NCBI GenBank assembly: GCA_964538855.1 | Contig: CAZIEY010000002.1 | Span: forward strand, 1,709 to 65,708 | Reading direction: 5' to 3' | Origin: an uncultured Candidatus Saccharibacteria bacterium | Lineage (GTDB): Bacteria; Patescibacteriota; Minisyncoccia; Phycocordibacterales; JAACPR01 | Length of the DNA: 64,000 nt | Notes under the pieces: model-generated | Told to the model about the DNA's origin: nothing | The model's input: only the letters and a program-made list of their open reading frames with translations | The model's database searches: none | Shown here: positions 30,773 through 31,030 of the stretch, one piece after another | How positions within the stretch are numbered: the first letter of the stretch is position 1 | Layout: every line of letters begins with the position of its first letter | Position numbers and translations under genes: made by a program

Positions 30773-30774
30773 CT

Positions 30775-30966
30775 ACGAGGGCGAGATTAAGGTGAAATAA
30801 AGAATCCCCTCATTTGGAGGCTTTCGGAGGACGAGGAGATATAGTTTTAAATAAGAACTTTATCGATCATTCGTCCGAGAACCGAGGCAAATTTTCCCGA
30901 GAGGGAAAATTATGTCGTACTCCAAATGAGGGTGTTCTTTATGTTATATTATAATCTCGCCCTCGT
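30775..30966 (+). repeat. Structured repeat element copy A. A 19 bp perfect inverted repeat (ACTACGAGGGCGAGATTAA/TTAATCTCGCCCTCGTAGT) encloses a 15 bp inner stem and the conserved core (CTTTCGGAGGACGAG...ATTCGTCCGAGAACCGAG...TTTCCCGAGAGGGAAA)
   Basis: Direct reading of the sequence. The right arm of the outer inverted repeat is the 5' acceptor strand of tRNA-Arg. Confidence 0.6.
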
Positions 30967-31030
30967 AGTTAAATGGATATAACTGCCCCGTCCTAAGGGG
31001 TAATTGTGCGTTCGATTCGTGCCGAGGGCA
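30959..31030 (+). tRNA. tRNA-Arg (anticodon CCT)
   Basis: Acceptor GCCCTCG/CGAGGGC, anticodon stem GCCCC/GGGGT with loop GTCCTAA, T-loop TTCGATT. Confidence 0.7.

Follow-up and report, generated by a model that had tools for sequence, protein, structure and literature searches.

A perfect inverted repeat at a tRNA-Arg gene is the stem base of a multi-copy hairpin element in Paceibacterota

We analysed a 64,000-nucleotide (nt) stretch (the window) of contig CAZIEY010000002.1, from a genome labelled as an uncultured Candidatus Saccharibacteria bacterium, in which an inverted repeat encloses an intergenic segment, here called element A, between a glutaredoxin-like gene (grx) and the gene for tRNA-Arg(CCT). 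Homologues of LepA place the window in Paceibacterota/Parcubacteria, within the Candidate Phyla Radiation (CPR). The grx open reading frame (ORF; 77 amino acids (aa), positions 30539–30772, forward strand, from the ORF list) encodes a protein that is assigned to Pfam Glutaredoxin through an identical sequence. The tRNA gene occupies 30959–31031 of the same strand. The tRNA call, on which the preliminary description of this locus depended, holds: ARAGORN and Rfam agree (RF00005, 50.4 bits against a threshold of 29), and the gene is identical or nearly so in relatives. A repeat search of the window recovered 20-nt arms that are 100% complementary, TAACTACGAGGGCGAGATTA at 30770–30789 and TAATCTCGCCCTCGTAGTTA at 30952–30971, with 162 nt between them. 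A perfect repeat of 19 bp had been described; the repeat is perfect, and its true length is 20 bp at shifted coordinates, with an inner limit of perfect pairing at 30789/30952 and an outer limit 3 nt beyond the earlier one. The right-arm string given then, TTAATCTCG, is not what the genome reads, which is ATAATCTCG (ATAATC, not TTAATC). The first three nucleotides of the left arm are the TAA stop of grx (30770–30772), and the arm is complementary to the tRNA leader and 5′ end. The right arm consists of 7 leader nucleotides followed by nucleotides 1–13 of the tRNA (the acceptor strand, nucleotides 8 and 9 and the start of the D stem); the right arm had been correctly identified as the tRNA 5′ end, of which it covers 13 nucleotides and not 10.

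Perfect inverted repeats with arms of at least 14 bp and a gap of at most 300 nt number only six in the window. Among 100 first-order Markov shuffles, arms reached 15 nt at most (mean longest, 10.3). Chance as the origin of the 20-bp repeat is excluded. Adjoining the perfect arms on the inside is a second pair (30788–30819 and 30920–30951; 32 nt, 81% complementary), whose mismatches face a putative promoter of the tRNA gene (see below). The whole closing helix, P1, spans ~52 bp, with 44 Watson–Crick and 4 G·U pairs in arms of 51 and 53 nt, in line with the helix of more than 34 bp proposed earlier. The predicted fold of the 206-nt hairpin has an energy of −103.8 kcal/mol (z = −14.6). The repeat had been said to enclose a discrete element, and it does: the 20-bp repeat is the outermost segment of P1 of a copy of element A.

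This copy (copy 1, 30770–30971 overall, forward strand) has a core at 30820–30919, delimited by alignments and covariation, that is composed of CUUUCGGA (30821–30828), hairpin P2 (30829–30876), GAGAACCGAG (30877–30886), hairpin P3 (30886–30916, with a GAGA loop at 30899–30902) and GU (30917–30918); G30820 opposite A30919 forms the terminal non-canonical pair of P1. The only ORF inside the insert (46 aa, TTG start, 30814–30954) is unlikely to be a conserved coding frame, as indels between copies argue against one. Two further copies lie in the window. Copy 2 (32889–33033, reverse strand) starts 3 nt downstream of tRNA-Phe (32811–32886), is antisense to it and has a P1 of 25–26 bp; copy 3 (33056–33228, forward strand) stands back to back with copy 2 and has a perfect 31-bp P1. 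The three copies score 89.8, 90.6 and 95.4 bits with our covariance model R1, compared with 13.3 bits for the best match at unrelated loci and a member cut-off of ~44 bits. They share the core CUUUCG-S-AGG...[P2]...CCGAGAAC(C)GAG...[P3]...YGU-R, and their outer stems are unrelated in sequence and all paired. Membership was defined as P1 + CUUUCG-S-AGG + P2 + CCGAGAA(C)CGAG + P3 + (G)GU with an R1 score of at least ~44 bits; with its stem, the element measures 115–250 nt.

Scanning one genome per species for the pattern and then applying the covariance model gave 28 matches in metagenome-assembled genomes (MAGs) labelled mostly Patescibacteria, Paceibacterota, Parcubacteria, Liptonbacteria and Saccharibacteria; genomes carry several copies each, and GC contents range from 35 to 67%. 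Scanning of metagenomes added at least ~45 copies, for a total of at least ~75 in Patescibacteria and Candidatus Dormibacterota; the latter phylum was assigned by HflX homology to a GC-rich subgroup (core of 85 nt, 72% GC). In the model alignment of 57 copies, paired cells make up 88.6%, compared with 63.4% after shuffling, and the covariation score is 0.639 compared with 0.194 (reached in 0 of 500 shuffles); sliding the structure by 1–3 columns lowered the score to 0.10–0.13. A separate MAFFT/RNAalifold analysis of 25 copies found compensatory changes in 27 of 35 pairs. P1, P2 and P3 covary strongly around ~24 invariant junction nucleotides, and the base before CUUUCG combines with the base after GU as G·A, A·G, C-G, U·G, A-U or G-C. 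One copy (L067, 4024–4145) carries CCAACGGA...GAGUUAGAG in place of the otherwise invariant CUUUCGGA...GAGAACGAG, a double compensatory swap of UU/AA to AA/UU, which is the sole direct evidence for a 3-bp helix UUC/GAA in the junction. The comparisons predict that the core is a compact three-way junction. From P1, the apex would run through C-U and the 3-bp helix, which would enclose a G-S-A / G-A internal loop and the variable P2, and then through CGA, the hairpin P3 and (G)GU back to P1.

On the sense strand, the P1 arms of 31 copies form 986 Watson–Crick and 50 G·U pairs and only 14 A·C pairs, and G·U likewise predominates in P3. This bias indicates selection on the folding of one strand. 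Because GNRA loops and the G·A/A·G alternation favour it, we lean towards folding at the level of RNA. The internal loop is not a K-turn, as its strand lengths are unfit and there is no 3-nt bulge. Searches of the window against Rfam 15 at gathering thresholds returned tRNAs only, and at E ≤ 10 positions 30500–31300 returned the tRNA and chance-level overlaps of it, leaving element A unmatched; the families covered include hammerhead, twister, twister-sister, pistol, hatchet, HDV-like, Y RNA, 6S, retron-type and omega-RNA-type. The GC-rich copies of L163, L056 and L023 also have no Rfam match. A scan of viral contigs with CCGAGAAC...CCCGAGAGGG gave chance matches only, including one superficially similar sequence (L003) that R1 does not match. 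A literature search on structured RNAs, ribozymes or transposable elements of the miniature inverted-repeat type (MITEs) of Patescibacteria and Parcubacteria yielded nothing relevant and no description of element A. By these comparisons, element A is an undescribed multi-copy hairpin family with a well-supported predicted structure that is not in Rfam.

The gene order murJ-lepA-divIC-grx-tRNA-Arg-doxX-pyrB-tRNA-Phe-hsp20 is kept in relatives. Three relatives have neither the element nor the 20-mer: L093 (LepA identity of 84%), in which TAA is followed by TTCCCG (6 nt) and the tRNA, L095 (77%; 25-nt spacer) and L021 (75%; 20-nt spacer). The ancestral spacer was thus 6–25 nt, and the repeat arm is not an older sequence that relatives keep upstream of the tRNA without the element, the outcome that would have spoken against the preliminary description. 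Because these empty-site relatives lack both, element A and the anti-tRNA segment are derived. Insertion beside the tRNA, as first proposed, did take place, as these sites show, and the comparison places it between the grx stop codon and tRNA-Arg(CCT) in what appears to be a recent ancestor of this Paceibacterota lineage.

Three other relatives carry the element. In L019 (LepA, 90%; ~77% nucleotide identity), the left flank TAACTACGAGGGC, the complement of tRNA nucleotides 1–13, is kept as in the window, and in a fourth relative, L160, 15 perfect pairs span the leader and acceptor strand. The leaders themselves differ (ATAATCTC in the window, TTAACCCAA in L019 and AAACCCCGA in L160), each with a matching left arm; the leader-segment arm pairs are GAGATTA/TAATCTC in the window, TTTGGTTA/TAACCCAA in L019 and TCGGGGTT/AACCCCGA in L160. 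The fact that leader and left arm changed together in these genomes shows that pairing was maintained over considerable divergence. In the closest relative, L018 (LepA, 98%; ~87% nucleotide identity), the stem stops at the tRNA with an overlap of at most 3 nt, and the tRNA is identical; the pairing into the tRNA is therefore lineage-specific and dispensable. Copy 1 differs from that of L018 in P2 and P1, but its replacement by a different element need not be assumed: homologous, fast-diverging arms and a P2 indel are sufficient, possibly with exchange with copy 2.

Stems also reach into genes at other loci. The perfect P1 of copy 3 includes the end of hsp20, TCGATTTAA, so that its 3′ arm takes in the final two codons and the stop of that gene (33220–33705, reverse strand; an exact-protein look-up of hsp20 returned no record). 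In L018, the hsp20 end reads TCCATCTAA, with synonymous changes, and the opposite arm matches it to give a perfect 36-bp stem. Among 25 copies, the outer P1 ends often lie −23 to +9 nt from flanking ORF or tRNA ends (crude ORF calls), the ends concerned being mainly 3′ ends of genes and convergent gene pairs. Sequence comparison thus depicts element A stems as generally running into neighbouring genes and co-evolving with them. The neighbours at the loci inspected are grx, DoxX, PyrB, Hsp20, ValRS, SmpB and HflX. Copies adjoin tRNA genes at only ~5–6 of ~40 distinct Patescibacteria loci (window copies 1 and 2, L055, L074 and L164), and we rejected tRNA targeting as a rule for the family; other tRNA-adjacent copies are antisense at tRNA 3′ ends.

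P1 is shared between copies only in the Dormibacterota subgroup and in three copies of one MAG. In Dormibacterota, copies from at least 7 genomic contexts have the core and the greater part of P1 in common, which identifies the whole hairpin as the repeated unit. Between hflX and smpB, L220 is an empty site: the two stops overlap (CTAG) and there is no hairpin. At the filled sites, L217 and L163, at least one element separates the stops; comparison of these few site pairs revealed neither a direct nor an inverted target duplication. We also rejected the idea that the element entered the loop of a terminator hairpin already in place, as there is no hairpin in L093 (6-nt spacer) or L220.

Several copies are partial, paired or mosaic. 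Truncated tandem 5′ halves, consisting of 5′ arm, junction and P2 and ending before GAGAAC, occur in L163 (7180–7260, minus-strand view) and in the upstream flanks of the Dormibacterota copies in L141 (801–885) and L178 (7187–7271). Dormibacterota variants with UUUGCG...GAGCACGAAG look decayed. Back-to-back (−,+) pairs, with their 5′ arms adjacent and ~13–35 nt apart, occur in the window (32889–33228), L056 (3113–3502) and L067 (3709–4208); read-through RNA across such a pair would carry one core antisense and one sense and could form an even longer duplex. The tandem halves and recurrent pairs point to rearrangements at the DNA level. The P2 of the tRNA-Arg copy of L160 (816–925; compared with L019, 16631–16740) resembles that of the tRNA-Phe copy, and window copy 1 (30877–30916) shares both the extra C of J2/3 (GAGAACCGAG) and P3 with copy 2 (32906–32962), mosaics that suggest gene conversion between copies within a genome. 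Three contigs of the MAG binchicken_co144_210 (L027, L061 and L073) each have a copy with one and the same P1, TCTCTTTCTCCGACAGGG..., suggesting that the element spread there recently; the label of this MAG, Gammaproteobacteria, is unfit for the family and may reflect mis-binning.

In the predicted fold of positions 30765–31035, the first 13 nucleotides of the tRNA are locked in P1 and neither the acceptor stem nor the D stem forms; the sequestration of the tRNA 5′ end that was first proposed is, by this model, physically sound for read-through RNA. An extended −10 motif lies 8–9 nt upstream of tRNA-Arg +1, inside the 3′ arm, in the window (TGTTATATT, 30942–30950), L019 (TGTGCTATATT) and L018 (TGTGTTATCTT). 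Its consensus in these genomes, TGTGYTATMTT, coincides with the mismatched stretch of P1, and a motif of this kind precedes tRNA-Arg in L194 and L133, both of which lack element A. In the window, 6 of the 9 tRNA genes (at 18308, 30959, 38469 (−), 39691, 62003 (−) and 62919 (−)) have an extended −10-like motif, TGnTAnnnT, only 8–13 nt upstream of the mature 5′ end, which suggests that primary tRNA transcripts of this organism have very short 5′ leaders or none. A consensus promoter scan that required a −35 box did not list the tRNA-Arg motif. The tRNA is most likely made from its own putative extended −10 promoter with a leader of ~0–3 nt, and only read-through RNA from grx would be trapped in P1. 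A scan of 30400–33400 found no terminator at any of the three copies, and no T-run or U-tract follows their 3′ arms.

We think it probable, though far from certain, that the repeat is the P1 base of an inserted copy of element A, that its overlap with the tRNA is a by-product and that the stem acts as an insulator while the tRNA relies on its own promoter. In Patescibacteria, P1 sequences are unrelated between loci but keep their one-strand pairing, and P1 typically reaches or enters the ends of genes. Where one arm falls in constrained sequence, as it does at the tRNA 5′ end and leader, the free arm would follow, either by selection on single-strand folding or by hairpin-templated repair or extension, and the anti-tRNA nucleotides would have arisen by templated extension or by selection. 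RNA reading through from the upstream gene would fold into P1, and the tRNA part of it could form neither acceptor nor D stem, so that P1 would serve as an insulator or 3′-end structure for the upstream transcript and not as a switch of tRNA maturation.

Several observations weigh against this reading. DNA hairpins, too, tolerate G·T better than any other mismatch, and the sense-strand bias fits single-stranded DNA as well. Orientation relative to the gene on the 5′ side is mixed (~13 copies co-oriented and ~9 not, by crude ORF calls), and the recurrent (−,+) pairs leave no room for a promoter, so that sense read-through transcription is not guaranteed. The putative tRNA-Arg promoter is a consensus match only, and the absence of a U-tract after P1 means that the stem is not a canonical terminator. 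Finally, the 10 anti-tRNA nucleotides that follow TAA must be newly added, because the ancestral spacer is too short to have supplied them, and they are more readily explained by a templated DNA event than by stepwise selection.

A bolder proposal, which we hold to be unlikely but worth keeping in view, is that element A constitutes a new class of functional RNA common to Patescibacteria and Dormibacterota, either a three-way-junction ribozyme, self-cleaving or catalytic in another way, or the RNA subunit or recognition site of a ribonucleoprotein, with the hairpin spreading between loci and its stem actively kept complementary to the ends of adjoining genes, a tRNA 5′ end among them. It resembles the hammerhead and other small self-cleaving ribozymes with three helices in its near-invariant single-stranded junction nucleotides, its covarying helices of variable length, a tandem G/A-rich internal loop beside helix 2 and its multi-copy, intergenic occurrence. 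The junctions differ, being CUUUCGSA / GAGAACGAG / GU in element A and CUGANGA / GAAA / UH in the hammerhead, and element A has an extra 3-bp helix. The hammerhead and hairpin-ribozyme cores do not match it in sequence, and no match appeared in Rfam at E ≤ 10.

A rather improbable alternative, raised in the preliminary description, is that the repeat is an integration footprint: insertion would have left an inverted copy of tRNA nucleotides 1–10 or 1–13 on the far side, a scar with no later role. It offers a possible origin for the first 10–13 nt. Judged by the empty sites, and as far as the tree can resolve, the anti-tRNA segment came in with the element; the 10 anti-tRNA nucleotides directly follow the stop codon, where there is no spare ancestral sequence, and copy 3 likewise has an inverted copy of the hsp20 end. 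However, a scar does not explain the compensating leader and left-arm pairs in the window, L019 and L160, which show that pairing was maintained after insertion, and L018 has lost the pairing. The repeated unit in Dormibacterota already contains P1, and the filled and empty hflX/smpB sites differ without inverted duplication of the flank or target-site duplication.

Doubtful to the same degree is a palindrome that acts as DNA, folding as a single strand or cruciform, for example as the substrate of a hairpin-recognizing transposase, with arms grown by intrastrand template switching and the tRNA overlap reflecting growth of the palindrome into its flank. Despite the fast divergence of orthologues, perfect pairing extends over long outer arms (20, 31 and 36 bp), and new nucleotides stand beside the stop codon. 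The tandem 5′-half copies and inverted back-to-back pairs suggest rearrangement during replication or recombination, orientation to neighbouring genes is mixed, and parts have been exchanged between copies (P2 of L160 copy 1, and J2/3 and P3 of window copy 1, all like copy 2). Template switching should nevertheless have mirrored the promoter segment too, yet mismatches persist there in all three genomes. The GNRA loops, the G·A/A·G alternation and ~24 nucleotides invariant across two phyla are typical of functional RNA, and no transposase was seen beside any copy.

Much less plausible is a dedicated regulator of tRNA-Arg(CCT) maturation, in which sequestration of the 5′ acceptor strand would control processing by RNase P or the supply of a rare-codon tRNA. 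The modelled precursor fold does block the acceptor and D stems, and the anti-tRNA segment is kept in the window, L019 and partly L160 despite ~24% nucleotide divergence. The processing or regulatory device first suggested nevertheless fares poorly: the same architecture recurs in at least ~75 copies, mostly not beside tRNAs, and other copies, too, extend P1 into whichever gene adjoins, such as the last codons of hsp20. L018 does without the segment, keeping at most 3 nt of pairing into an identical tRNA, relatives without the element have the same tRNA, and other tRNA-adjacent copies are antisense at tRNA 3′ ends. The putative promoter in the 3′ arm would yield a transcript that lacks the left arm. 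Chance complementarity or a mis-called tRNA has a vanishingly small probability, as shuffled arms never exceeded 15 nt and two methods back a tRNA that is conserved in relatives.

As an inserted hairpin with a conserved apex, element A can be set beside known repeat families. The transcribed Correia/NEMIS repeats of Neisseria, the ERIC/IRU repeats of enterobacteria, RUP and other stem-loop families (PMC2267715, PMC3184786) are likewise multi-copy, intergenic long hairpins of 100–200 nt. They lie near or over stop codons, often between convergent genes, join neighbouring transcripts and can carry or overlap promoters. Their terminal inverted repeats are conserved and their centres are variable, whereas in Patescibacteria the apex of element A is conserved and the stems are unrelated. 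Element A also differs in spanning two phyla, with no target-site duplication or partner transposase found. Repetitive extragenic palindromic (REP) sequences and REPINs with their REP-associated tyrosine transposases (RAYTs) (PMC3337134, PMC3733652) are also extragenic, palindromic, multi-copy hairpins at gene 3′ ends, and the Dormibacterota form of element A, repeated as a whole hairpin, is REPIN-like. In a REPIN, two conserved REPs of 20–40 nt flank a spacer that varies, the heads are GTAG/CGTC and a RAYT gene goes with them. No such feature was seen at the element A loci, where the conserved part is a three-way junction; no conserved REP-like arm was found among the P1 arms.

Other classes fit less well. 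Integrative elements that target tRNA genes resemble copy 1 in inserting at a tRNA gene and repeating part of the tRNA on the other side, but they carry an integrase and a direct repeat of the tRNA 3′ part, whereas the repeat here is inverted and derived from the 5′ end, the insert is ~180 nt and its sole ORF encodes 46 aa. A MITE would have conserved terminal inverted repeats, and P1 is unrelated among the window copies and most Patescibacteria copies; there is also no target-site duplication at grx/tRNA-Arg or at hflX/smpB, among few site pairs. None of the three window copies has the form of an intrinsic terminator (a GC-rich stem of 5–20 bp, a short loop and a U-tract). A retron msr/msd is not indicated either: the inverted flanks are present, but an adjacent reverse transcriptase gene would be expected, and the neighbours are housekeeping genes at every locus inspected.

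The overlap with the tRNA is thus most likely a side effect, one that illustrates how a repeat stem can recruit functional gene sequence while the tRNA gene would stay expressed from a putative promoter buried in that stem. Classical MITEs and REPs have the opposite layout to this conserved apex with free stems. With an invariant, covarying junction in two deep lineages, Patescibacteria (CPR) and Dormibacterota, element A is a good candidate for a functional RNA, as a ribozyme or protein-binding RNA, in hosts whose non-coding repertoire is almost unexplored. Its copies also break assemblies, which matters for the reconstruction of CPR genomes: in independent assemblies of the same or a near-identical strain, contig L016 ends inside copy 3 and the 694-nt contig L017 ends inside copy 1, so the element fragments metagenome assemblies.

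The window contains further repeats. A second hairpin family, element B, has two intergenic copies (44004–44127 and 50690–50809) with perfect outer stems of 29 and 27 bp that differ between copies, and a conserved apex, AAGUCUGGUUGAGCA...UGCGACCCGAGGACUU; its layout is that of element A, a conserved apex on a free stem. Rfam gave no match above threshold for element B and only sub-threshold matches resembling miRNA precursors. Two paralogous genes of 136 and 137 aa (600–1010 and 36736–37149, in regions 542–1097 and 36678–37208) share an upstream region of ~60 nt that ends in GTATAAT, and both are followed by a conserved hairpin, AACGACCC...GGGTCGTT; the upstream region occurs a third time, by itself, at 11706–11766.

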